Source: Candidatus Pacearchaeota archaeon
Lineage (GTDB): Archaea; Nanobdellota; Nanobdellia; Pacearchaeales; GW2011-AR1
Direction: 5' to 3'
DNA: 64,000 bases
Assembly (NCBI GenBank): GCA_050302495.1
Contig: JBNLBP010000001.1
Coordinates: 191,269-255,268 of the forward strand
The notes beneath the pieces are model-generated. The model did not search any database. It worked only from the letters and a program-made list of their open reading frames with translations, and was not told the origin of the DNA. Numbering within the stretch: the first letter of the stretch is position 1; each line of letters opens with the position of its first letter. This document shows positions 6,869 to 21,551 of this stretch, piece by piece. The translations under genes and the position numbers were made by a program.

Positions 6869-7315
6869 ATGAACTGGAGCTACTTTGCTGGATTTATGGA
6901 CGGAGAAGGTTCCATTATTCTTAAACCTCCTAGAGTTAGACTTTATGTGGCAAACACCAATAAGCAAGTTTTAGAAGAAATTAGTAATTTTCTTGGTTGT
7001 GGTAAAGTTTACGATATAAATATGAAAAACAAAAGTGATAAATGGAGTAAACAATATGGTTGGACGATTGCCAATCATAAAGATGTTCTTAGGATTTTGA
7101 AAGGTTTGAAAAACAGATTAATAATTAAAAAACAACTTTGTCAGGATGCAATTAAGTATATTGAAAATAAACGATGGCAGAGGAACTATTTATCCAAGGA
7201 AGAATTGCAAAAGTGGGTTTATTTAAAATCCAGTCGAAAAATTGCCAGAAAATTAGGTGTTAGTCAATCTGCAGTTTTAAATTATCTTAAGAAGTATGGA
7301 ATTTATTATCGGTAA
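6869..7315 (+). CDS. LAGLIDADG homing endonuclease-like protein (single motif, with C-terminal HTH)
   Basis: N-terminal YFAGFMDGEGSI is a near-canonical LAGLIDADG motif. C-terminal SRKIARKLGVSQSAVLNYLKKYG looks like an HTH. 148 aa. Starts 107 nt from the tRNA-Thr 5' end and abuts rps3ae tail-to-tail. Confidence 0.7.
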   Translation: MNWSYFAGFMDGEGSIILKPPRVRLYVANTNKQVLEEISNFLGCGKVYDINMKNKSDKWSKQYGWTIANHKDVLRILKGLKNRLIIKKQLCQDAIKYIENKRWQRNYLSKEELQKWVYLKSSRKIARKLGVSQSAVLNYLKKYGIYYR

Positions 7316-8618: not shown

Positions 8619-9128
8619 ATGAGCAATCAAAGAAAACCAAATTTAATTAGTAAGGTTTTTTATTTTAACGATAAGGTTTTGAAGGATCTTTATGGCATTC
8701 ACGAATTATTGAAAAGGGTCTCTAATGCTGATAATGTTACCAAAACCTATTCTATTGTTTTTCAATTTACAAGAAATTATTTAGAAGAATCTCTTAAATC
8801 GCCCTTTGAACAAGATTGGACTAACGATTTTAAGTCTATTTTGGATCCTTTGGAAGTTAAAGATTATTTGGATAAGTCCTCTTATAAGAAATGTATTTTT
8901 AATTTTAATAGGGGGACTCTTGATAATATTGAATGGGGGGTAAATTATTTGGGTAGTTATTACCCTCTTCTTACAAGAGAGGATAAGAATATTTTGTTTC
9001 TTGCTTCAGGAGTAAAGTTACTTGAAGATTTTATTGGAACAGAGAATTTTTATTCTGACTCTTCAAATTTTGATCTCGGAGACAAATCTAGAAACCCTTT
9101 TGGAGATTATGATTTTGAGTTAAATTAA
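8619..9128 (+). CDS. hypothetical protein
   Basis: 169-aa ORF ending 3 nt before tRNA-Val. No motifs recognised. Confidence 0.45.
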   Translation: MSNQRKPNLISKVFYFNDKVLKDLYGIHELLKRVSNADNVTKTYSIVFQFTRNYLEESLKSPFEQDWTNDFKSILDPLEVKDYLDKSSYKKCIFNFNRGTLDNIEWGVNYLGSYYPLLTREDKNILFLASGVKLLEDFIGTENFYSDSSNFDLGDKSRNPFGDYDFELN

Positions 9129-9130
9129 AA

Positions 9131-9202
9131 TGGTCCTGCGAGGAATTGAACCTCGATCTCATCCAAGTCAGGGATGCGTCTTAGCCACTGGACTACAGGA
9201 CC
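9131..9202 (-). tRNA. tRNA-Val (anticodon GAC)
   Basis: Reverse complement GGTCCTG-TA-GTCC-AGTGGCTA-AGAC-G-CATCC-CTGACTT-GGATG-AGATC-GAGGT-TCAATTC-CTCGC-AGGACC-A gives a clean cloverleaf. 72 nt, no intron. Confidence 0.85.
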
Positions 9203-9264
9203 CTGTTAATTTGAATTATATTTTTGTCTCCGGAAATATTTAAATATCTATTTATTCTATTTAC

Positions 9265-9465
9265 ATGATGAGGCGACTTAAGACTATACTTTTTGTAATT
9301 TATTTGTTATTGGCTATTTATCTTTTTAATAAGGCTTTTAGCTTTGTGCCTATATCAGAATTTTTGCTTAAAATAGAAAATTGGCTTTTCTTTTTTGCAG
9401 GTATTTTTTTGATTATCGGAGGAATAAATCTTTTGAAGAATAGGAGACGTTCTCATATAATCTAA
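9265..9465 (+). CDS. small membrane protein
   Basis: 66 aa with two hydrophobic segments. Immediately upstream of the 617-aa and giant-protein genes. Confidence 0.35.
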   Translation: MMRRLKTILFVIYLLLAIYLFNKAFSFVPISEFLLKIENWLFFFAGIFLIIGGINLLKNRRRSHII

Positions 9466-9499
9466 TAAAGTTTATATACGTATTTTTCATTATTTTGCT

Positions 9500-11353
9500 A
9501 TGCTATTAAGAGGTGTAAAGAAGGGGCAAGTTACTATTTTTATTATCATTGCAATAGTTATTGTTGCTGCCGTTGGAATTTTCTTTTTATTGAGGAGTCA
9601 GACTAGTATTTCTAGGATTCCTTCTGAGTTTGCACCAACTTACGAAAGCTTTACTTTTTGTCTAGATAGCAAGGTTGAATCAGGGGTTAAGGCTTTGGAA
9701 TCTCAAGGAGGCTACATTGATTTGCCTGAGTTTGTTTCTGGTTCAGAGTATATGCCTTTCTCTTCTCAACTTAATTTATTAGGTAATCCTATTCCTTATT
9801 GGTATTATGTGTCTGGAAATAACATTGAGAAGGAACAGGTTCCAAGTAGGCAAGATATGGAAAATGATTTGAGCGGTTTTATTGAATCCAAAGTTGTTGA
9901 TTGTATCCCTGAAGACTTGGATGAAGGTTTTGAGATTACTGTGGGAGATCCTTTGGTCCGGACTAGCATTAAACCAGGAGAAGTCCAGGTCAATGTTAGA
10001 ATGGATTTTACAATTAGTAAAGATGATGAGTCAGTGAGTATTAATAATCATCAATTGATCTTTGATTCAGAGTTAGGAAGGTTGTATTCTAATGCAATTA
10101 TTGCTTACGAGGCTGAACAAGATGAGTTGTTTTTAGAGAATTATGGTGTTGATGTTTTGAGATTATATGCTCCTGTTGATGGAGTTGATTTTACTTGTAG
10201 CCCTAAGGTTTGGAGTGCTGATGAAATATTTGAGGATCTATCTGTCGCAATACAAGAAAACACACTTTCTATTAAATCTCAGGGTAACTCTGAAGATTAT
10301 TTTGTGGTAGATTCTTTGAATTCAAGAATTTCTGATGGGTTTTATGTGAAATTCCTTAATTCAGAAAGTTGGTCAAGTAGTTTTGAAGTAAATCCTTCTG
10401 ATGGTCCTATTTTAATTGCAAATGCAATTGGAAATCAGCAAGGTTTGGGGGTTTTAGGATTCTGTTATGTTCCATATCATTTTGTGTACAATGTTAATTA
10501 CCCTGTTTTGGTTCAGGTTTATAGTGAAAATACAGATGAGTTCTTCCAGTTTCCTGTTGCTGTAGTCTTAAGGGGTAATAAAGCTAGGGAGGCTGTTGCT
10601 TCTTCTGGTGCTTCAACTTATGAGGGCCCCAATATATGTGAAAATAAAAATACTGGTCTGAGAGTAAGGACTATTGATTCTAACTCGAATCTTGTTAATT
10701 CAGAGATTTATTTTGAGTGCTTTGGGGATAGTTGTAAAATAGGAGATAGTGAAAATGGTATCTTAGAAGATGCTTTCCCTCAGTGCGTTAATGGATATAT
10801 AATTGCAAAGGCTGAAGGTTTTGAGGATACTAGTGTCCAGATAACTAACATTGGTCCTGGGAACTTTGATATTATCATGAATAAACTTTATGATACAGAA
10901 GTTCTTTTGAATTTGGATGCGATTGCTTATAATGGAGAAGCTACAATTACTTTTGAAAGAGAGGGTTTCTCTCAAACATTGGTTTATCCAACTCAAAAAG
11001 AGATTAGTTTGAGTGAAGGGTCTTACAATATCAGTGTTTATATTTATAGAAATGCTTCTTTGAGTTTAGGATCAAGTGTTCAACAGTATTGTATTGACGT
11101 TCCTAGGGCGATAGGAGGTTCTTTGGGTTTGACTAAAGAAGAATGTTTTGATGTAGAAGTTCCTGAACAAATTATTTCTAATGCTCTTTCCGGAGGAGGA
11201 GAAGTTAATTATTATGTTTCTGAAAATCAATTAAGTAGTGCAAGTCAGATTGTTGTGGGTGCAACTAGCCTTCCAGAGCCAAATTCACTTAATCAACTTC
11301 AGCAAAACTATGTTTTATTTGATAGTAAAAGTTTGGAGGTTTTACTTAGATGA
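9500..11353 (+). CDS. membrane-anchored extracellular protein, hypothetical
   Basis: N-terminal TM/signal anchor (TIFIIIAIVIVAAVGIFFLL) followed by about 580 aa of S/N/G-rich non-hydrophobic sequence. Its stop overlaps the giant-protein ATG (ATGA, 11350-11353), suggesting translational coupling. Confidence 0.6.
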   Translation: MLLRGVKKGQVTIFIIIAIVIVAAVGIFFLLRSQTSISRIPSEFAPTYESFTFCLDSKVESGVKALESQGGYIDLPEFVSGSEYMPFSSQLNLLGNPIPYWYYVSGNNIEKEQVPSRQDMENDLSGFIESKVVDCIPEDLDEGFEITVGDPLVRTSIKPGEVQVNVRMDFTISKDDESVSINNHQLIFDSELGRLYSNAIIAYEAEQDELFLENYGVDVLRLYAPVDGVDFTCSPKVWSADEIFEDLSVAIQENTLSIKSQGNSEDYFVVDSLNSRISDGFYVKFLNSESWSSSFEVNPSDGPILIANAIGNQQGLGVLGFCYVPYHFVYNVNYPVLVQVYSENTDEFFQFPVAVVLRGNKAREAVASSGASTYEGPNICENKNTGLRVRTIDSNSNLVNSEIYFECFGDSCKIGDSENGILEDAFPQCVNGYIIAKAEGFEDTSVQITNIGPGNFDIIMNKLYDTEVLLNLDAIAYNGEATITFEREGFSQTLVYPTQKEISLSEGSYNISVYIYRNASLSLGSSVQQYCIDVPRAIGGSLGLTKEECFDVEVPEQIISNALSGGGEVNYYVSENQLSSASQIVVGATSLPEPNSLNQLQQNYVLFDSKSLEVLLR

Positions 11354-14300
11354 TTAAGAATAAGTTTTTTGTTGTAGGTATTTTTGTTTTGATATTGGGG
11401 ACTCTTCTTTTGGGAGGGATAGAGGCTTATAGCGTTTCTACTCCTAGTTATTCTTTGTATAACAATGCTGGAGGTGTTGGGGGAAGTTTTGCAAGTTTTA
11501 CTCAGCAAGGTTTTGATAGCGAATTATGTTCTGCTGGAACAGATTTTCTTTTACAAATACAACCTTTTGAATGTGAGCCTGCAGTTGTGAGGAGTGATCT
11601 TCTTGAAGAACAAGATGTTACTGTTTTGTGTAAAATTGGAGCTACACAAATAAATCCTTTGATTGATGTTCAAGCTATAAACACTCTAAACATTGTTGGG
11701 GAGTATCCTAGAGAAATAAAGAGTATTGGTTATTTCCCTTCCCAGTCTGCTTTGGGTTATTATGATTTTGATGAAACTCTTACTGATCCTGCTTTGAATA
11801 ATTTGGGTTATGTTGCTATAACCCTTAGACAAAACCCTAATGAAAGTTCTATGCCTGATTTTGTTTCTGGAAATCTAACAGCCAAGATTAATTATGATGT
11901 TAAGAATGCATTTGGCGTTGGTCAGGCTGAATTTTATCTTCCTGTTTTGAATGATGAGGATTATTTTAACAATATAAATCAGTATAGTTTTTGGGAAGGT
12001 AGAGGGTACCTTAGGGCTGATAGTGTTGGCACGGATGATGCCAGTATATCTCTTTATTCTGATGTTTCTTCTGGATCTGCTAGTTTTGGAAACTCTGGAA
12101 AGCAAAGAGTTACTCAAGTTAGATTGAATGGAGGTGAAACTTCTGGTTCGATTTATATTCCTGGTTTTAGCCCTTGTTTGGCTTCAATGAAGTTGAAACT
12201 TAATGGTGTTGAAGATCCAGATACTAGAGCAGAGTTGTTGATTAATACAGATCATGTTGAAATTAATGATAATGGTGATTTCTTAGAAAGTAAGTGTACT
12301 GTAACAGATTTGGACAAGAATGGTTTGAATCAGAAAGTTAGTATTAGGTGTAAGGAAGATGATGGCAGTTCTAGTTTTAATTTATTTTTGTCCCCTAGAG
12401 TGAGAATCTCTATTGATGGAATTGCTAAAGATTATTCTGTTGGAGATTATCTTTATTCTAACAATGGAAGAGGTGTTTATTTGGGTTATATTAGTTCTAA
12501 GGGTGGATCAACAGATGTTGAAAATTTATATGCCGTTTTGGTTTCTTTACCTGAAGAGAAAACTAAGTTAACAGAGGATGAAATTTCAAGTATTGCAATA
12601 CAAATGAATCTGTTGTTTTCGGATACTGAAGGTTCAGGAGCAGCGGTTTTTGATATTGGGGCCGAAATTCTAAAGAAATTCTCAGGGGCTTCAGTTACTC
12701 TTGCCAAATGGACTGTTAGCGGACAAAATATACAAAAAGTTGATTTTAAGACAAATGTTGTTTCCCCTCAATATGATTTTGAAGGAGAAAAAGTTTCCTT
12801 AAGTGGTTTTTCTGAAGGAGAAGATAATGGGGTTGTTGAGGTTGTTCCGGAATCTTATGATTTACAGAAAGCTAATTTAGATGTTGGAGGGATTTTGCCT
12901 AAACAAGTTTACAAAGTTTACAAGGATGGAGAAGATACAGGTTATTATTTTACTGCTAGTGAGAGTGGATCTCCTAAATTTATTTTGAGAAAGAACACTG
13001 TGACGGAGATTTTAGGTGTGGGAGAATTTTATGGAAAGGATTGTTCTTTACATCAGTCTTGTTCTGAGTATATTTTATCAAAGGTAGATAACAGCGTTTC
13101 AGGAGACTTTTTTGAAGGAGTTGTTTCAGGAAGTGTTTTAGTTAATGAGAATAAACTTGTTTTAAACAAACTTGTATTTAATTCAAATTCAAACGAGTTG
13201 TATAAACAATATTATGATAAAGCTATAACTGATTTTGAAACTGTTTTGAATAGTTTTGGAGGGTTAAGTATTGATGGGGCAGATGATACTTATGGTGAGA
13301 GAGCTTTGTATCAGGCTATTAATCTTTCTAAAAGGATCAATCAAAATAAGGCTTTGAAACAACTTTGTCAAGAATTTATTGAGAGCTATCCTGATTCAAT
13401 TAAACCTTTAGATATGTGTGAAGATGACTATTCTTTATCTAACTCGGGTATTTCTAATAGAGATGTTTTAGTTAACGGAGAGATAAAAACAATTTCCTTT
13501 GAAGGTATAAAAGAGCCTACTTACCAAGAATACGGTGCAGAAGTTTTGATAAGAAGTTCGGACGGTAAGATCCAGACTTATCAATTAAGAAAGGATAAAG
13601 TTGTATATTTGAATTTAAAAGATAATGCTTCTGGTTCAGAATATATTAAACTAGATTCGGTGGATGAAGATTCTGCAAGGGTTACGGTTTATGTTTCTGG
13701 AGAAAATCTTGCAAATCAATTATTTTCTTTGAATAGCTATACTTTTGATATTGATGAAACAAGAGGTATTGGAGGAGGGTATAGTTTAACCCTTACTGAT
13801 ACTAACATAGAAAAGGTTGCAAGGGTTTCAGTGGTTCCAAGTTTTAATTATCAGAATTCTGAATCTGAATTTGGATTTAATATTGGCATAGAGAAACGTT
13901 CAATACAACTTTCTGACGAACAGATTGAGAATAGGGTTGATAGTTTAAGTAATGCAATTTCTGATCTTGAAAAGGCTTCAAATGCTCTCAATACGTTTAA
14001 TGAAGCTAGTGCTAAGGTTTGTTTAGCAACAGGAGCTGTTTTAACTGCTAAGAATTTCTTGGCTAACTCGGATGGTAAATCTATAGCGAGACAGAAGGTC
14101 ATGCGTAGTTCTGGAGGGTGGAATGATTTTTGTGCTAGTGAAGTAAGTAAAGGGAATTATATTTCTCTAGATGATTGTTTCCTTGAGAATTCTGATGAGA
14201 TAGATTCTCAAGTTGATGAAGTTTTCAATACAATACAAACTCAGAATGAAAGAATAAAACAACTTGAAGCTGATTCTTTGCAAACAGGAACTTTAACAAA

Positions 14301-17300
14301 TAAGGTTGTTGATCAACAGGAATTTATGAAGGATTATTCTCAGATTGGATCTGATTCTTTAGTGGGCTTGGGTAATACTTTCGTCGATCCTACTGGTAAA
14401 AATGAACCTCTTGAGATTGATGAAATTAAGAATTTGTTAAGTTACCAGGGTTGGGAAAGTGGTATCTATAGCATAGATGATCTTAAAGATATAGAGCTTT
14501 ATGCAACTTTAGTTAAGAGTACAAATGATGCTGAGAGCAAGAAGTCTTACAGCCAAACACTTTACTCTTTGCTTTATGACGTTCAAAATAACGCAGGGAA
14601 TTTTGTAGAAAGAACTTCTTTCTTTGACAAGTATTCTCTAGAGGGTCACCAGGGAGGATTTATTTCTTCAGATGATAAGATAAAGAGAATTCAGGTTTCT
14701 GATTTAAAGACTTGGGCAGATGTTGAAAGTTCATATCCTGGAGGGATGAGTGTTGTTTTACTTCCAAATTCGATTATCTTCCCTGGAAACCCTGCAGATT
14801 ATCTTATTGCGGATAATGAATTGGTTTATCCGGTTGTTGATATAGCTACTAATAGGGAATATCTTTTGGTTTTGAATGATGATTATATTGTTACTAGAAC
14901 ATTCCAGTTAAATCCTTTGAATGGTCAGTTGGTTATGGTTAATGATAAAGTAAACCCTCTGAGTTTAGCTTTTGATAAATATGATGAAGGTTCATATGAG
15001 AATAGTTATAAGAATCCAGAAGTAAGGTATTATGAGGAAGACCCTTACAAAGGTTATCCTGCGATTGTTCCTTTAGATACAAATGATGGTTGGTATGCTG
15101 CAACTAAACCTAAGCTTCCTGTTGGAAGTCAGATTACTGCTTATGATGCTTCAGGTAGATTGAATAGTTTCTGGTTATGTAACGTTGGATCTAATGGTTT
15201 GGAAGAATTTTCTAGTTCTGGTTTAGGAGATGATATTTGCCAACAAATTAATGTGGGGGTTCCTGGAACTGTTTATAATCAATTTGCTGGATTGAGTGAA
15301 AGTAAAACTACAAGGCTTGTAACTGATGCTGTTGATTCGATTGAGAAGGCTCAGAGAGCTTATAAGAATGGAGTTAATTCTGTTAGAATCAACGGTCAGA
15401 ATTACAAAGTTGGAGAACCTGCGGTAGAAACTCCCGCAGTTCAGTGTCAAGATTTCATGTCTCCTAAAGAATGTAATTTATTGTTTAATGTTTGTGATCC
15501 TGTTGTTTGTCCTAGCTCAAGATGTGATTTTGGAGGGGCTTACCCTGTTAAGGATGTTGTTCAGACAGGAATAGTTGGAAGTATTGCTCTCTGTGCACCA
15601 AATTATAAAGAGGGGATAAAGGTTCCGGTTTGTACAACAGGTGTTCAAGCTGGTTTGGATTCATGGATAAGTGTCCAGGAATCATATAGGGATTGTTTGC
15701 AGGAAAATTTGGAGAGTGGAGAAACTATTGGTGTTTGTGACGAGATACATAGTGTTTATGCTTGTGAATTCTTTTGGAGACAATCAATACCTTTGGCTAA
15801 AGTAGCTGTTCCAAAATTAATTGGATTAATTTCAGGAGAGAACACCCGTGGTGGAGGAGAATATCTGGGATTACAGAGTGCATGGGATAATGCAAAAGAT
15901 TCTTTAGACTACTTTAAACAATATTATGCTTCTGAATCTTATAATGCTTTCAAAGTTAGAAGTGTTGATGAAGCTGGAACTGCGGTTTGTAAAAGTTATG
16001 TATCTACGGTTTACCCTTCTAGTGCTGAATTATTAGATAGTTTAACTACTCCACGTTCGCCTCCGCAATTTACAGGAAGCTTTGATGAGATTCCATTTAC
16101 TACCGCAACAAATCCTCCCACCTCACAGTATAAGGTTTATTACCACATTTATTCTGGACAAGATTCTGGAGCTTATTACAGAGTTTATCTTAAGGGTGGA
16201 AGTGGGAGTTTCTATCAAGATAGCGCGCTTAATAGAGTAGTTGATTCCGGTTACGTTTCAGTAGGAGATTATGCTTCAGATACAGTTGACTTTACTGCAC
16301 CTTCAGGATATACCCAATTATGTATTGTTGTAAATAATCAGGAAGAGTGTGGTTTCGGAAAAGTGTCAACTTCTTTTGCAGTTAATTATGTTAATGATTT
16401 GTATTTGCAGGAACAAACTACTTCGGGGGTTACAACAGAAGAAGAATGTGTTTCTGGAAGTGCTAGTTTGTATAGCTTATTGAATCCTAACCTTCAAGAT
16501 GTGGCTGAAGGTTTAATCAACCCTGAGCTGTACCAAAAAGGTATTACAAGAGTTTGTGCTACAAACAGCCCTGGTATTGGAACGGATGCTAAGGATGGGA
16601 CTGAAAATGCAAGATGGAGAAAAGTGGGTTACTGTACAGATACAAACGTTGGTTGTTGGCTAGATACTGATTCCGTTAAAGATGCTATTAAATCCTTAGA
16701 TGTTGAGAATTCTGTTTTAAATGACACCGCTCAGAGTTATCTTGATGATTTGGTAAATTCTGGAGATTATGTTAACAATCAGAATTATAGTCAGACTTTA
16801 AGAGACGTTAAGAAAGAATCTGATTCTTCTAAGAAGATAGAAATAATAAATAATATTTTGGATAAGGTATTCTTTAGTAATCAAAAAGCTGAACTTTATT
16901 TCTTGAGAGGTTTGGCTTATGGAGATCTTTCTGGTTTGGAATTTGGTAAGATTGAACAAATAAAAACAAATAGTGTGGACCTTGGAACAATTGTTGATGA
17001 CCAAGGAAACGTTTGCATCTTGCCTCAAGTTCCTAGTGATATTTCTTCAATTGATGATGCTCGGCAAAGAGTATTGAAAGCTGCAGAAAAATTAGATGGG
17101 GGTTTGGCTTTCTCTGGAGATTATGCGTGCTATAGTGCTGCTGTTTATGTATACCAATATGCAGGGGTTTCTGCTGTTCCTTCTTATGCAGATAAATCTG
17201 GGGCCACCTATACCTTAAAGGATTCAAATTCAAAAGTTACAATTGGCGTAGATAAAACTTCTCAAGGAAGTGTTATTTTCCAAGTTGGAACAGGTTATAA

Positions 17301-19425
17301 TAAGATCGGAGAAGATAACTATGATACTAAACTAGCATCTCTTCAACCTGGAGACCAGTTGGATATTGTTTGGGCCTCTAAATTGCCTCACTCGGTTATA
17401 TTTATTTCTTGGATTAATCCTGCCACAAATGAAGAAACTACTTCTGTTACTGGATATGCTAGAATCTTTGATTGGAATGGTGCAGATTTGAAGATCGATG
17501 AGAAAGATGAAAATGGGCTTGTTTGTGGAGAAGATAATAAGTATGTTAGAACTCTTAATAAGGGTAAAGTTAATGAGGAACAATATTGTAATACTTACAG
17601 ATACACGAATTTGTATTTAACTTCTGATGTTCATCCTGTTTATCTATATAGATCTCCTCAATTAAGTGGCACAACTATTTCTACGGGTACTGGTGGTACG
17701 GGAGTTAGTAGTGTTTTAGCCAAGTTTTCTTCAGGATATTCTTCTCCTGATATTGAATTCCAAGATGGAACTAGTTATAGAAATGTTCACTATAAGTTCC
17801 AAGAGGGAGGTTGGTATTGGTTTAATCCCAAAGATAATTTTTGGTATTCTGTTAGCGATAGTATTGAAGGTAAGGCAGTTTCATTGGAGGTGAATAGACA
17901 AATAATTACTTCTCTTCAAGAACGTAATGGCAACTACATAGAGGGTCTTGGAGTTATTATAAATAATGTTCTTAGTTTCAGTGGGGGTGTTTTGTTTGGT
18001 AGAATTAATTTCATTAGTTCTAGTCCGGATTTGAAAACAGAGAATGTTAATTTGAATAGTGAAGGTATCTTTAAGGTAGATCTTTCTTTTAATGAACAGC
18101 CTTATTACTTTAGATTTAAAGAAGGTGTATGGGAATTTAATCCTACTAGGGGTATTGATCCACGTTATTGGTTTGATGTTTCGGACGTTTCATTTAATAA
18201 AGCTGCTAGTCAGGTTTTGGTTTCAGGTGAAGCTAAGGTTGTAGGTTCAATTCCTTCAGATCCAATACAATCTGTTACCGTGAGCCTTGTTGATAAGACT
18301 TATTTTGAGGGGGCTGCCCTGCTTTATGATTTGTCGGATAATTCAATAATTGAGTCTACACAGGATGTTGATTCTCAAAAATTGGATTCTTGGGAGAGTG
18401 AGAATTTAGGAAGCACCGATTTGGGCAGGTTTACTTCAAAACAAATTTCAATACTTTATGATGCTCCTAGTTGCGTTTATTGTGAGAGTTATCCTGATGA
18501 TTGTGATAGTAATTTATGTGCAGTTATTGGTAAAAAATTAGGCGCTTCTTGTCAGTATTATGCAAAGGGTGCAGATATAAGTGATACTCCTATATACAAT
18601 TGTCGTGCAGGAGAAGGGTACACAGATAGAGAATTAAGATCAATATATGAAGCAACTCAGTGTAATGATTGTGGGTCTGGTTTGGGTAACTTCTGTGGTG
18701 AGACTGAATGCTTAGATATTGGGGAAAGAATTGGTAAGACTTGTGAATATGGGTTCTTGAGTTGTAAAGAAGCACAACCTGCTCAAGACGACACTTCTGA
18801 TATTCCGAATTGGAATACTCTTTCTGCTGAACAAAGGGACGTTTATTCTAGTGCAACACAGTGTAGTGATTGTATAACAAGTATAAGTTCTACAAGTGGC
18901 ACTTCTAATTATTGCGATGCTAATCTTTGCGCATCAATTGGTTACAAATTAGGCAAGAATTGTGTTCAGGAACCAGGCTTGACTAAAACTTGTATTGAGG
19001 GAATTGGTTTAGATAATCTTGATCAACAGTTAGTTGATGCTCTTTATAGAGGTCTGGATGACAATAATAGGGCTGAGATAATGTCCTTGATTGAACAAGG
19101 AGCTGATATCAATGTTAAAGATGATGATGGATGGACTCCTTTGATTTATGCATCTCGTCTTGGACATCTTGACCTTGTAAAATATCTTGTTGAAAATGGT
19201 GCAGATGTTAGTGTTAAAGATGGTATAGAAGGTTGGACCGCTCTTATACATGCCTCTATTAAGGGAGATGTTGACATTGTAAAATATCTTGTTGAAAATG
19301 GTGCAGAGGTTAATACCCAAAGTGATTCTGGAGAAACAGCGTTAGATCGAGCTGTTCAACTTAATAATGTTGATGTTGTTAGTTATTTGCAATCTAAAGG
19401 TGCTAAATCTGGGAGTGAACTTTAG
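11350..19425 (+). CDS. giant (2691 aa) secreted/surface protein with C-terminal Cys-rich modules and ankyrin repeats
   Basis: Uninterrupted 8.1-kb ORF. N-terminal hydrophobic signal/anchor (FVVGIFVLILGTLLLGG). Several Cys-rich blocks, e.g. around 15450-15800 and 18468-19010. The last about 125 aa are 3-4 ankyrin repeats (DGWTPLIYASRLGHLDLVKYLVENGADV; GWTALIHASIKGDVDIVKYLVENGAEV; GETALDRAVQLNNVDVVSYL). Confidence 0.8.
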   Translation: MIKNKFFVVGIFVLILGTLLLGGIEAYSVSTPSYSLYNNAGGVGGSFASFTQQGFDSELCSAGTDFLLQIQPFECEPAVVRSDLLEEQDVTVLCKIGATQINPLIDVQAINTLNIVGEYPREIKSIGYFPSQSALGYYDFDETLTDPALNNLGYVAITLRQNPNESSMPDFVSGNLTAKINYDVKNAFGVGQAEFYLPVLNDEDYFNNINQYSFWEGRGYLRADSVGTDDASISLYSDVSSGSASFGNSGKQRVTQVRLNGGETSGSIYIPGFSPCLASMKLKLNGVEDPDTRAELLINTDHVEINDNGDFLESKCTVTDLDKNGLNQKVSIRCKEDDGSSSFNLFLSPRVRISIDGIAKDYSVGDYLYSNNGRGVYLGYISSKGGSTDVENLYAVLVSLPEEKTKLTEDEISSIAIQMNLLFSDTEGSGAAVFDIGAEILKKFSGASVTLAKWTVSGQNIQKVDFKTNVVSPQYDFEGEKVSLSGFSEGEDNGVVEVVPESYDLQKANLDVGGILPKQVYKVYKDGEDTGYYFTASESGSPKFILRKNTVTEILGVGEFYGKDCSLHQSCSEYILSKVDNSVSGDFFEGVVSGSVLVNENKLVLNKLVFNSNSNELYKQYYDKAITDFETVLNSFGGLSIDGADDTYGERALYQAINLSKRINQNKALKQLCQEFIESYPDSIKPLDMCEDDYSLSNSGISNRDVLVNGEIKTISFEGIKEPTYQEYGAEVLIRSSDGKIQTYQLRKDKVVYLNLKDNASGSEYIKLDSVDEDSARVTVYVSGENLANQLFSLNSYTFDIDETRGIGGGYSLTLTDTNIEKVARVSVVPSFNYQNSESEFGFNIGIEKRSIQLSDEQIENRVDSLSNAISDLEKASNALNTFNEASAKVCLATGAVLTAKNFLANSDGKSIARQKVMRSSGGWNDFCASEVSKGNYISLDDCFLENSDEIDSQVDEVFNTIQTQNERIKQLEADSLQTGTLTNKVVDQQEFMKDYSQIGSDSLVGLGNTFVDPTGKNEPLEIDEIKNLLSYQGWESGIYSIDDLKDIELYATLVKSTNDAESKKSYSQTLYSLLYDVQNNAGNFVERTSFFDKYSLEGHQGGFISSDDKIKRIQVSDLKTWADVESSYPGGMSVVLLPNSIIFPGNPADYLIADNELVYPVVDIATNREYLLVLNDDYIVTRTFQLNPLNGQLVMVNDKVNPLSLAFDKYDEGSYENSYKNPEVRYYEEDPYKGYPAIVPLDTNDGWYAATKPKLPVGSQITAYDASGRLNSFWLCNVGSNGLEEFSSSGLGDDICQQINVGVPGTVYNQFAGLSESKTTRLVTDAVDSIEKAQRAYKNGVNSVRINGQNYKVGEPAVETPAVQCQDFMSPKECNLLFNVCDPVVCPSSRCDFGGAYPVKDVVQTGIVGSIALCAPNYKEGIKVPVCTTGVQAGLDSWISVQESYRDCLQENLESGETIGVCDEIHSVYACEFFWRQSIPLAKVAVPKLIGLISGENTRGGGEYLGLQSAWDNAKDSLDYFKQYYASESYNAFKVRSVDEAGTAVCKSYVSTVYPSSAELLDSLTTPRSPPQFTGSFDEIPFTTATNPPTSQYKVYYHIYSGQDSGAYYRVYLKGGSGSFYQDSALNRVVDSGYVSVGDYASDTVDFTAPSGYTQLCIVVNNQEECGFGKVSTSFAVNYVNDLYLQEQTTSGVTTEEECVSGSASLYSLLNPNLQDVAEGLINPELYQKGITRVCATNSPGIGTDAKDGTENARWRKVGYCTDTNVGCWLDTDSVKDAIKSLDVENSVLNDTAQSYLDDLVNSGDYVNNQNYSQTLRDVKKESDSSKKIEIINNILDKVFFSNQKAELYFLRGLAYGDLSGLEFGKIEQIKTNSVDLGTIVDDQGNVCILPQVPSDISSIDDARQRVLKAAEKLDGGLAFSGDYACYSAAVYVYQYAGVSAVPSYADKSGATYTLKDSNSKVTIGVDKTSQGSVIFQVGTGYNKIGEDNYDTKLASLQPGDQLDIVWASKLPHSVIFISWINPATNEETTSVTGYARIFDWNGADLKIDEKDENGLVCGEDNKYVRTLNKGKVNEEQYCNTYRYTNLYLTSDVHPVYLYRSPQLSGTTISTGTGGTGVSSVLAKFSSGYSSPDIEFQDGTSYRNVHYKFQEGGWYWFNPKDNFWYSVSDSIEGKAVSLEVNRQIITSLQERNGNYIEGLGVIINNVLSFSGGVLFGRINFISSSPDLKTENVNLNSEGIFKVDLSFNEQPYYFRFKEGVWEFNPTRGIDPRYWFDVSDVSFNKAASQVLVSGEAKVVGSIPSDPIQSVTVSLVDKTYFEGAALLYDLSDNSIIESTQDVDSQKLDSWESENLGSTDLGRFTSKQISILYDAPSCVYCESYPDDCDSNLCAVIGKKLGASCQYYAKGADISDTPIYNCRAGEGYTDRELRSIYEATQCNDCGSGLGNFCGETECLDIGERIGKTCEYGFLSCKEAQPAQDDTSDIPNWNTLSAEQRDVYSSATQCSDCITSISSTSGTSNYCDANLCASIGYKLGKNCVQEPGLTKTCIEGIGLDNLDQQLVDALYRGLDDNNRAEIMSLIEQGADINVKDDDGWTPLIYASRLGHLDLVKYLVENGADVSVKDGIEGWTALIHASIKGDVDIVKYLVENGAEVNTQSDSGETALDRAVQLNNVDVVSYLQSKGAKSGSEL
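18468..19010 (+). repeat. three tandem Cys-rich modules within the giant protein (coding repeat)
   Basis: Modules SCVYCESYPDDCDSNLCAVIGKKLGASC / ATQCNDCGSGLGNFCGETECLDIGERIGKTC / ATQCSDCIT...NYCDANLCASIGYKLGKNC share the pattern ATQC-DC...C..LC..IG..LGK.C. Confidence 0.5.
19030..19422 (+). other. ankyrin-repeat region (C-terminus of giant protein)
   Basis: Repeated 33-aa units with the consensus G-TPL--A---GH-D-VK-L---GA-VN. Confidence 0.7.
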
Positions 19426-20132
19426 AAGAAATCTCTTAAATCTATAACCGATTTTCTTATATTTTCAAAGGGAGTTGCTATTTTTGGATTGATCCCTCTG
19501 TATATTTCTCCAGGAGTTTTTATTAGTGCACTTTCGTTTTCTTCAGAGATTTCTATGTTGTTGTTAGCAGGGATTACATAAAAGGGTGTTTTTCCTTCTG
19601 CTTTTTCATCGCTGGTTGTTACTAAAGGATATATGTAATCTGTTTTTAATAGGCTGAACGGTTTTAAGGCCCTTTGGATATTGTCTATGGTGTAAACCCT
19701 TATTGTTGAATCTGATTGGAGGCTAGGATTTTTTGAACGATATCCCAGTATTTCTAGTTCTTGAATAAGGTTGTTTTTGGAAGGTGTTTCTGCCCTTGCT
19801 TTTAAGAAAATGTATTCGTTGTCTGGATTAATGTTTTGTTTGACTAGTTTTTTGTTTTCCTTGTTGAAATCATATATTATGAAAGGGAGCATTTCTTCAT
19901 TATTTGCAGTATCACTTATTTCTATCTTTTGTATAAAATATTTGTTAAAACCTTGAATTTTTAGTTCGCCTATCTCTCCAATCTTTTCATATTTTGGTAT
20001 TGAGATGTTTGCAAGTCCGTTTTCTTGATAAGTTGCTCTTGGTTTTGGATTTTCTTGTATTTTATTTTCTATCGAACAACTTGTTAGAGCTAAGATTGTT
20101 GCTAATCCTCCTAAAATTGTAGCTTTGTTCAT
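19422..20132 (-). CDS. putative secreted lipoprotein
   Basis: N-terminal MNKATILGGLATILALTSCS has a hydrophobic signal plus a lipobox-like L-T-S-C. Convergent with the giant gene; its stop overlaps 19422-19425. Confidence 0.55.
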   Translation of the reverse strand: MNKATILGGLATILALTSCSIENKIQENPKPRATYQENGLANISIPKYEKIGEIGELKIQGFNKYFIQKIEISDTANNEEMLPFIIYDFNKENKKLVKQNINPDNEYIFLKARAETPSKNNLIQELEILGYRSKNPSLQSDSTIRVYTIDNIQRALKPFSLLKTDYIYPLVTTSDEKAEGKTPFYVIPANNNIEISEENESALIKTPGEIYRGINPKIATPFENIRKSVIDLRDFF

Positions 20133-20813: not shown

Positions 20814-21551
20814 ATGGAGATTACAGAAGGTCTTTCGGAAATATTTGGAATGTTTGCAGCAGATGGGAATTTGCAGGAGAATCATATTAGTATGTGGGGC
20901 AATATTCATGAAGATAAGGAATACTATGATAGGGTTGTTTGCCCTTTGTTTTCTAAAGTATTTGGAATAAATGTAAATGCACATGAGAAAGAAAGCAATT
21001 CTGTTTATGGGTTTTACATCTGTAGGAAGGAGATAATTAAGATTTTCAAGGATTTTGGTTTTACTCGTAGAAAGACCTATTCGGTAAAAATTCCACATGA
21101 AATTTTATTTTCTAAAGACAAGAACATAATTTCGGCTTTTATAAGGGGTTTTGCTGATTGTGATGGTTGTTTAAATTTTATGAAACGTTATGAAAAAGGA
21201 TATTCTTCTTTTAAGAGAAAATATCATACTTATCCGAGGATTTTTATTGGTGTTGTTTCTAAGCAAATTATTTTTGATTTGAGTTTTTTGTTGGATTTCT
21301 TGAACATTGGCCATTCTGTTCACTTTTCTTCAAAGAAGAAGGTTAATGAGGCAGATGTTTATCGGATTGCTGTTAGGGGTCCAGAAAGAATAAATAAATG
21401 GATGGATTCTATAGGTTTCAATAATTACTCTAAATTTACGAAATATCTTGTCTGGAAAAAACATGGTTTTTGTCCAACCCCTTCTTCTCTTAAACAAAGA
21501 GAATTGATCTTGCAAAATGAATTAATTCCAGAAAGTCTTTATGAAATGTAA
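20814..21551 (+). CDS. LAGLIDADG homing endonuclease-like protein (double motif)
   Basis: Two dodecapeptide-like motifs, IFGMFAADGNL and FIRGFADCDGCL, about 100 aa apart. ATG at 20814. Stop lies 35 nt upstream of the intron-containing tRNA-Leu. Confidence 0.7.
   Translation: MEITEGLSEIFGMFAADGNLQENHISMWGNIHEDKEYYDRVVCPLFSKVFGINVNAHEKESNSVYGFYICRKEIIKIFKDFGFTRRKTYSVKIPHEILFSKDKNIISAFIRGFADCDGCLNFMKRYEKGYSSFKRKYHTYPRIFIGVVSKQIIFDLSFLLDFLNIGHSVHFSSKKKVNEADVYRIAVRGPERINKWMDSIGFNNYSKFTKYLVWKKHGFCPTPSSLKQRELILQNELIPESLYEM

Follow-up and report, generated by a model that had tools for sequence, protein, structure and literature searches.

In a 64,000-nucleotide (nt) stretch of a Candidatus Pacearchaeota genome (GenBank assembly GCA_050302495.1, contig JBNLBP010000001.1, positions 191,269 to 255,268; hereafter the window), the genes for a 617-amino acid (aa) protein, here called the partner (9500-11353, + strand), and for a giant protein of 2691 aa (11350-19425, +) are a conserved, translationally coupled pair that appears, from the survey of related loci, to be restricted to Pace- and Woesearchaeota. 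We give about even credence to the proposal that the two products form a surface-anchored complex of two components, by which cell-wall-directed modules are presented to bacterial partners. Both genes are preceded on the same strand by a small open reading frame (ORF) of 66 aa (9265-9465, +), and the three translated ORFs lie in series exactly where a reading made from the nucleotide sequence alone (the sequence-only reading) had placed them.

A Conserved and Coupled Gene Pair

Related loci were surveyed with one genome per species; the partner occurs in 293 genomes, and 80 loci were kept, all 80 of which derive from a metagenome-assembled genome (MAG) of Pace-, Woese-, or Nanoarchaeota or from an archaeal MAG without a finer label. 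The giant core directly follows the partner in 83 of 84 loci, with a contig end explaining the remaining one, and synteny across related genomes therefore upholds the pairing. In the window, the two genes meet in an ATGA (11350-11353, +), the partner stop codon overlapping the giant start codon; this junction for translational coupling, which the sequence-only reading had also reported, is seen directly in the sequence. The overlap was called in 46 of 82 scorable loci (window included), and about 16 further listed junctions show ATGA at the partner stop. The gene cluster lies among housekeeping genes in related loci (SRP54, FtsY, S3Ae, GINS, and TFIIB).

The giant ORF is a real, intact gene with no visible decay, because an open frame of 8.1 kb has a chance probability of ~3e-89 in DNA this AT-rich (window guanine-cytosine content ~32%), and because aa 1-1860 are colinear with more than 100 homologues. 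A pseudogene or a chance ORF is ruled out on the same two grounds.

Export and Architecture of the Giant Protein

The giant begins with a predicted, cleavable Sec-type signal peptide (aa 1-26; 11350-11427, +), for which cleavage is placed after A26 (..GIEA) and before Y27. Homologues retain the features of this signal, namely a K/R-rich n-region, a hydrophobic core, and S/A-x-A followed by Y (usually ..SA, then Y), with Y27 conserved in at least 90%. No hydrophobic segment was found in the giant beyond the N-terminal one. A signal or anchor had been proposed for this N-terminus in the sequence-only reading; the signal holds, whereas an anchor does not, since the peptide is predicted to be cleavable. 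The conserved n-h-c signal, the lack of any other transmembrane (TM) segment, and the sequon depletion described below are together consistent with an extracellular location. The proposal that a DPANN archaeon with a small genome secretes the giant is borne out by the relatives of this protein: a word-index search yielded 399 homologues of 1900-3600 aa, and all those with a taxonomic label are Pace-, Woese-, or Nanoarchaeota MAGs. Identity of the giant to the 119 matches listed (of the 399) is 38-58%.

Coverage and conservation profiles divide the giant into a core (aa 1-1860), which contains a variable insert (aa 510-620) and a looser stretch (aa 1110-1200), and a variable tail from aa 1860 onward. 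The N-terminal core domain (aa 55-500; 11512-12849, +) is present in all 119 listed homologues with a median identity of 42% and has no Pfam match. It is followed by the insert (12877-13209, +), where alignment occupancy falls to ~0.2, and by a middle core region (aa 630-1110; 13237-14679, +) that consists of a beta-sandwich and then long helices (median identity 36%). The most conserved part of the core is Cys-rich (aa 1201-1860; 14950-16929, +), with a median identity of 52.6% and 19 Cys, nearly all of which are invariant. When a profile of aa 1201-1860 was searched against 1.84 billion representative proteins (clusters defined at 50% identity), 1111 clusters were recovered at E<=1e-3. The giant family is large yet has sharp limits and hardly any twilight zone, because 1063 of these 1111 clusters are already found at E<=1e-10.

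For the core, no match was found in Pfam, NCBIfam, or PHROGs, and a profile search gave no relative in PDB; a single-sequence PDB search was swamped by ankyrin/DARPin matches. An adhesin-like beta-sandwich or a pectate-lyase fold had been guessed for the N-terminal 1500 aa, and this guess is not borne out in the part that was modelled (aa 661-1500), where the predicted structure consists of generic Ig-like sandwiches and long helices without a confident fold match.

Measured as median identity to the window across related loci, the partner (50%) and giant aa 1201-1860 (52.6%) come close to the archaeal ribosomal protein S3Ae (56.6%), which is encoded beside the three-ORF block; the corresponding values for giant aa 1-500 and aa 630-1110 are 42 and 36%. 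The giant core and the partner are thus about as conserved as S3Ae. Because a surface protein here evolves about as slowly as a ribosomal protein, this near-ribosomal rate suggests a machine-like or tightly packed structure and not a free adhesin.

The Partner and Its Class III Signal

From its sequence, the partner is assigned to the archaeal proteins with a class III (prepilin-type) signal. Its N-terminus consists of the leader MLLRGVKKG followed by QVTIFIIIAIVIVAAVGIFFLL (N-terminus of 9500-11353, +), a motif that is shared by homologues, in which a leader of variable length precedes [KR]-[GA]-Q-[VT]-T-[IV]-F-I-I-[IV]-A; Q10, T12, and F14 are invariant in 38 homologues. The features expected of an archaeal class III signal are all present: a charged leader ending in [KR]-[GA], the Q, and a hydrophobic helix of ~20 residues. 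The N-terminal anchor ascribed to this protein by the sequence-only reading is therefore upheld as a hydrophobic N-terminus, although its nature is that of a class III signal peptide. Beyond the signal, the partner has an alpha/beta domain (aa ~45-360) and tandem beta-sandwich domains (aa ~383-573). There are 2296 homologues, and those among the 120 matches listed are ~605-640 aa long and 50-62% identical over the full length.

Searches with the partner in Pfam, NCBIfam, and PHROGs gave nothing, and a PDB profile search gave no meaningful match; neither a secretin fold nor the Secretin Pfam domain (GspD/PilQ/InvG) was found. By size and by its setting in the scanned loci, the partner does not resemble a type IV filament subunit, since these loci hold no assembly genes and a globular part of ~600 aa is atypical for a filament pilin. 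No platform protein, assembly ATPase, or peptidase was found in the loci inspected (L001-L004) or among 20 window ORFs; ten window ORFs scanned for pilus machinery are aminoacyl-tRNA synthetases, GatB, tRNase Z, or have no confident family. In one relative (L017:18699-19517, +), the giant is directly followed by an ORF of 272 aa that has the same class III signal (..RKRGQVTIFIIIAVLIL) and represents a second pilin-like gene.

Sequon Depletion

Both members of the pair are poor in N-glycosylation sequons. The giant has 6 N-X-S/T sequons where 26.7 are expected (z -4.1), and the family medians of observed over expected are 0.31 (giant) and 0.26 (partner), with control motifs at 0.89-1.10. The related loci (L001-L084) also hold 307 ORFs of cytoplasmic type, with a ratio of 1.05, and 18 further signal-peptide ORFs, with a ratio of 0.58. 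The depletion supports export of both partner and giant and suggests selection against N-glycosylation of the two proteins; in view of the other signal-peptide ORFs, such selection may act on exported proteins across the lineage.

A Swappable C-Terminal Cassette

The tail of the giant behaves in sequence comparisons as an exchangeable cassette, because closely similar cores can carry dissimilar tails: in the pairs P0050/P0057, P0070/P0270, and L032/L074, for example, cores that are 80-85% identical are joined to tails of no detectable similarity. Tail length among relatives ranges from ~7 to 1260 aa. Pfam domains were surveyed in 52 tails from different species, and the most frequent is SLT (15 tails of 52), followed by Peptidase_M15_4 and NlpC/P60 (3 tails each), VanY (2 tails), and Amidase_2, Glucosaminidase, pre-toxin HINT (PT-HINT), LRR, and Ank (1 tail each), the single Ank tail being that of the window giant. 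Altogether ~40% of relatives have a tail with enzymes that act only on bacterial peptidoglycan. By Pfam, SLT (PF01464) is lacking from the window giant, and SLT thus appears optional for the giant family as delimited here.

The window tail contains a Cys/His/Asp module of ~200 aa (17047-17679, +), a candidate papain-like hydrolase of the NlpC/P60/CHAP clan. Across 19 copies of this module, Cys1927 and His2014 are invariant and Asp2041 is near-invariant (conserved in at least 90%), and the order Cys-His-polar residue is that of papain-like hydrolases. Pfam matches to the 19 copies are weak (NLPC_P60 in 3 of 19, best E 0.0054; CHAP, 0.033; Amidase_6, 0.098), the module profile found nothing in PDB, and an hhalign comparison with Escherichia coli MepS (approximate query sequence) gave a probability of 2.3%, with only the GD..H motif aligned. 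A papain-like hydrolase is accordingly no more than a reasonable guess for this module. It occurs at varying positions in ~58 of the 119 listed homologues, and a database search with the module profile returned only two stand-alone proteins, P0357 (298 aa) and P0358 (271 aa), both without annotation; the presence of such stand-alone proteins in metagenomes would fit an autonomous, mobile domain. In P0105, the module aligns at aa 703-847, in the first half of the protein and in the region of the variable insert, not in the tail. The variable insert (aa 510-620) may be a second cassette site.

Downstream of the module are two W-rich copies of the pattern Y-x-F-x-E-G-x-W-x-F-N-P...W-x-x-V-S-D (aa ~2140-2285; 17767-18204, +), which were read from the sequence and have no Pfam match. 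These are followed by three Cys-rich repeats (aa ~2368-2555; 18451-19014, +) with 6 Cys each and CxxC starts at aa 2375, 2438, and 2505, and by C-terminal ankyrin repeats (aa ~2560-2690; 19027-19419, +), for which profile matches lie within aa ~2580-2686 (Ank_2, E 3.1e-25; Ank_4, E 2e-24; Ank, E 3e-22). The ankyrin and Cys-rich repeats named in the sequence-only reading are thus both present; a C-terminal Ank is found in only ~4 of the 119 listed homologues. With ankyrin and Cys-rich repeats in addition to a Cys/His/Asp module that may be an amidase or peptidase, the window tail looks like a binding-oriented variant. What might be taken for a giant ankyrin protein would therefore be one cassette variant of a family and not a eukaryote-like oddity.

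In one MAG (L004/L008), the giant is called only as a 972-aa piece with SLT and VanY (L004:17543-20461), and a frame that starts at 11839 (11839-17397) runs for 1852 aa. A closely related MAG has an intact ORF of 2887 aa (L003:11839-20502) where the gene of L004/L008 is split. Either the assembly contains a frameshift here or the gene was recently disrupted where core and tail meet.

Two Promoters and a Small Membrane Protein

The sequence-only reading took all three genes to be one operon. It is more likely that there are two transcription units, because the 66-aa and 617-aa genes each have a conserved promoter of their own, and the block probably consists of a one-gene unit (66 aa) followed by a two-gene unit (617 aa and giant). 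Promoter 1 comprises a B recognition element/TATA-like sequence, GAAATATTTAAATA (9233-9246, +), 19 nt before the ATG of the 66-aa ORF. This 14-mer occurs once in the window and is found exactly in 25 of 48 non-redundant related loci, or with at most two mismatches in 42 of the 48; in 34 of those loci it starts at exactly -35 from the small-ORF ATG. Promoter 2 has a TATA box, TTTATATA (9471-9478, +), within the 34-nt spacer between the first two genes and 21 nt before the partner ATG. It is contained in a block (aATAAAsTTTATATA..TTtCATTA) that has a fixed position, 21-31 nt before the partner ATG, in 20 of 20 loci that are without an extra 45-aa ORF (see below). Archaeal promoters in general have a TATA box centred at ~-26. 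Because the TATA box is centred at about this distance from each ATG, both mRNAs should be leaderless or near-leaderless. Translational coupling of the giant to its upstream neighbours, as originally claimed, is thus retained for the 617-aa and giant genes, which share the ATGA, and not for the 66-aa and 617-aa genes, which are separated by the spacer with its conserved TATA box.

The 66-aa protein has two hydrophobic segments, predicted as helices, and no family match in Pfam, NCBIfam, or PHROGs. In 51 of the 84 related loci, a homologue (median identity 36%) immediately precedes the partner, and synteny thus also upholds this neighbour. The protein is a small membrane protein, conserved as a neighbour of the pair, and is probably encoded on a separate transcript.

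About half of the related loci have an extra ORF for a soluble protein of 44-45 aa (MKKYLLLIEDEK..) between the small gene and the partner (L001:9874-10008, L003:9874-10011, and ~24 other related loci); it overlaps the partner start in L001-L004. An inverted repeat, TTACTAA-N6-TTAGTAA, lies upstream of the TATA box of this ORF, together with a Shine-Dalgarno-like leader. From these features, the extra ORF looks like a small regulator with its operator. No copy of it was found anywhere in the window, including 9466-9499 (best tblastn E 0.096).

Proposed Function and Alternatives

In the surface-complex model introduced above, the partner would be exported, perhaps with its leader removed by a class III signal peptidase, and would remain lodged by its hydrophobic N-terminal helix in the membrane or in a fibre of the pilus type. 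The giant would be exported by Sec, cleaved between A26 and Y27, and left with no anchor of its own, so that the partner would hold it on the cell surface; matched amounts of the two proteins would be favoured by co-translation from the overlapping genes. The constrained core of 1700-1850 aa would form a stalk or scaffold that holds the tail out toward an adjacent cell, which the tail would meet with a peptidoglycan hydrolase in many relatives and with a putative Cys/His/Asp enzyme and ankyrin repeats in the window. The 66-aa membrane protein may assist assembly. Peptidoglycan is absent from archaea. Because ~40% of relatives' tails carry enzymes specific to bacterial peptidoglycan, the target would be the wall of a bacterium, to which the archaeon would attach, which it would breach locally, or on which it would feed. 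Among these steps, the export signals, the gene coupling, the division into core and tail, and the hydrolase content of relatives' tails are those that can be read from the sequences.

Several observations count against this model. Contact between the partner and the giant is a step that we infer. The scanned surroundings of the locus (L001-L004 and 20 window ORFs) show neither a prepilin peptidase nor a pilus ATPase. The window tail contains no recognisable peptidoglycan hydrolase; its Cys/His/Asp copy has no Pfam match, and the module as a whole is weakly NlpC/P60-like. About half of the surveyed tails have no Pfam domain, and some giants stop right after the core, which must therefore do something in its own right. 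Additionally, we know of no cultured organism in this clade and of no known host. A role in host attachment or host manipulation, as had been suggested for the giant, is made plausible by the peptidoglycan hydrolases in relatives' tails.

An alternative, which we consider unlikely, is that the pair constitutes a surface layer (S-layer) analogous to SlaA/SlaB of Sulfolobales, with the giant as the lattice canopy, the partner as the membrane stalk, and the tail modules as decorations. The likeness is that in both cases a large anchor-less secreted protein and a single-anchor beta-sandwich stalk protein are encoded side by side. However, the gene order and the anchored end are reversed (an N-terminal class III helix in the partner, a C-terminal TM helix in SlaB), no sequence homology was detected, and the similarity to SlaB is confined to a generic beta-sandwich. 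Conservation at the ribosomal level is unusual for S-layer proteins, and polymorphic enzyme tails and PT-HINT are foreign to S-layers. Sequons are rich in SlaA/SlaB and, as a trend, in classical archaeal S-layer glycoproteins, whereas they are depleted and not enriched here, contrary to heavy N-glycosylation; this only mildly disfavours an S-layer, because the 18 other exported ORFs share the trend (0.58). We regard as less probable again that the giant leaves the cell as a polymorphic toxin or bacteriolysin and kills or digests bacteria at a distance, either to gain nutrients or to compete, with the partner solely as an export or maturation factor. Its conserved N-terminal region and swappable enzyme cassettes have the layout of a polymorphic toxin of the Rhs, CdiA, or MafB type, in which a conserved N-terminal carrier is joined to recombining C-terminal cassettes; the PT-HINT domain of one relative adds to the likeness, and experiments have demonstrated the killing of bacteria by peptidoglycan hydrolases from archaea (PMC12352652). 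In contrast to such toxins, the window system has no immunity gene, no type V, VI, or VII secretion partner, and no Rhs/YD or haemagglutinin repeats, and its effectors would be cell-wall hydrolases or binding repeats, not nucleases or deaminases. For an enzyme that diffuses away, an ultra-conserved carrier of 1850 aa would be a heavy expense. Many giants have no tail or one made of binding repeats (Ank, LRR), and the tight coupling of the giant to a partner with a membrane anchor speaks for its staying on the cell. No immunity-like gene was found directly downstream of the giant, where relatives have convergent TFIIB or other housekeeping genes and the window has a lipoprotein-like ORF and a tRNA-Cys; this point is neutral, as archaea free of peptidoglycan would need none.

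In a filament resembling a type IV pilus, the partner could also be a minor or tip pilin, with the giant as a tip adhesin at the end of the fibre. We hold this to be very unlikely as a separate explanation, and it is really a sub-variant of the surface-complex model. The canonical class III signal of the partner would fit a pilus tip, as would the second class III-signal gene right after the giant in one relative (L017:18699-19517) and the example of Omnitrophota, in which giant predation-linked genes are flanked by genes of a type II secretion system (T2SS) or pilin-like genes (10.1101/2023.11.21.568195). Yet pilins that form filaments are much smaller than a partner of ~600 aa, none of the inspected loci encodes a pilus ATPase, platform protein, or peptidase, and class III signals are also found on non-filament proteins such as the sugar-binding proteins of Sulfolobus (10.64898/2026.04.22.720090). 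The latter ("bindosome") proteins resemble the partner in being large globular proteins with a prepilin-type signal that are encoded away from pilus assembly genes; they differ in that the partner has no solute-binding domain and is coupled to the giant, not to an ATP-binding cassette transporter.

A stronger version of the surface-complex model is that the pair is the core of an undescribed, clade-defining envelope machine, with a body of ~1800 aa in a new fold, a pilin-like anchor, and interchangeable warheads against bacteria. We advance this version only tentatively and think it rather doubtful; if true, it would represent a new class of interdomain, contact-dependent effector-display system, and most Pace- and Woesearchaeota would live on bacteria and not on archaea.

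Relation to Described Systems and Significance

The giant family has been noted before, as fam00969, and the claim that the locus is a new cell-surface system therefore lapses for the giant, even though the family is uncharacterised. In the published description, fam00969 is a family specific to Pace- and Woesearchaeota whose proteins reach 3000 aa and have an SLT domain (Castelle, 2021; PMC8204110), and attachment to bacterial walls has been suggested for SLT-bearing members (PMC8204110; Vigneron, 2022, PMC9723730). AR20 (Castelle, 2015) is listed with the same giant family. The window giant agrees with that description, as far as it goes, in clade, size range (up to ~3000 aa), and extracellular location, and it shares the 1860-aa core at 40-58% identity with SLT-bearing members such as P0077, which has the NCBI name "transglycosylase SLT domain-containing protein." On this description and on core homology, the window giant would belong to fam00969. 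It differs in having no SLT, which in our survey is one of many exchangeable tail modules (15 of 52) and not a defining feature. By sequence, the window giant is hence best described as a new, ankyrin-tailed member of a noted, uncharacterised family. In the searched portions of the literature, we found no description of an SLT-independent core, of a partner with a class III signal and its coupling to the giant, of the promoters, of cassette exchange, or of sequon avoidance, and the main text on fam00969 (PMC8204110) contains no mention that we found of the small membrane gene.

The closest functional analogues of the pair are the "Archaeovorin" loci of Omnitrophota, in which giant proteins are encoded adjacent to T2SS/pilin-like loci (West-Roberts, 2023; 10.1101/2023.11.21.568195). 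Archaeovorins differ in being bacterial, 10-30 times longer, composed of other domains, and encoded beside a full secretion-system locus, and domain scans and a profile search detected no sequence relationship to the window proteins.

Among DPANN episymbionts, SPEARE of Nanohaloarchaeota (said to have been reported by Hamm in 2019) is reportedly also a giant surface protein for which host contact is proposed; it is said to differ in lineage, in its domains (protease, adhesion, and restriction endonuclease), and in having an archaeal host. No homology between SPEARE and the window proteins was detected here.

Few uncultured archaea are as abundant as the tiny, probably symbiotic Pace- and Woesearchaeota; which hosts they use and by what mechanism they attach is the question that the pair addresses. 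As a near-universal, constrained surface pair with a variable end that repeatedly bears peptidoglycan-specific enzymes, it offers the best genomic access to hosts and attachment alike; it suggests bacterial partners, supplies specific proteins for testing, and could serve as a marker for in-situ labelling or cryo-electron tomography.

Neighbouring Genes

The three-ORF block is flanked upstream by a tRNA-Val (9131-9202, - strand), and L001 has a near-identical tRNA sequence (~9150-9230) at the same position, directly before the small-ORF promoter. Just before the tRNA-Val, the window has a 169-aa ORF (8619-9128) with no family match, which L003 does not have. Downstream lies a convergent ORF of 236 aa (19422-20132, -), followed by the tRNA-Cys; the N-terminus of this ORF resembles a lipobox (..LALTSC), and its 3' end runs into the giant stop codon by 4 nt. 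No family assignment was found for this ORF, which lies outside the conserved cluster; TFIIB occupies the place in relatives. The wider region is flanked by two free-standing LAGLIDADG-type ORFs (6869-7315, +, and 20814-21551, +), the first of which also has an HTH_50 domain; L004 contains a comparable ORF. Both are possibly mobile homing-endonuclease genes of a kind scattered in these small genomes.

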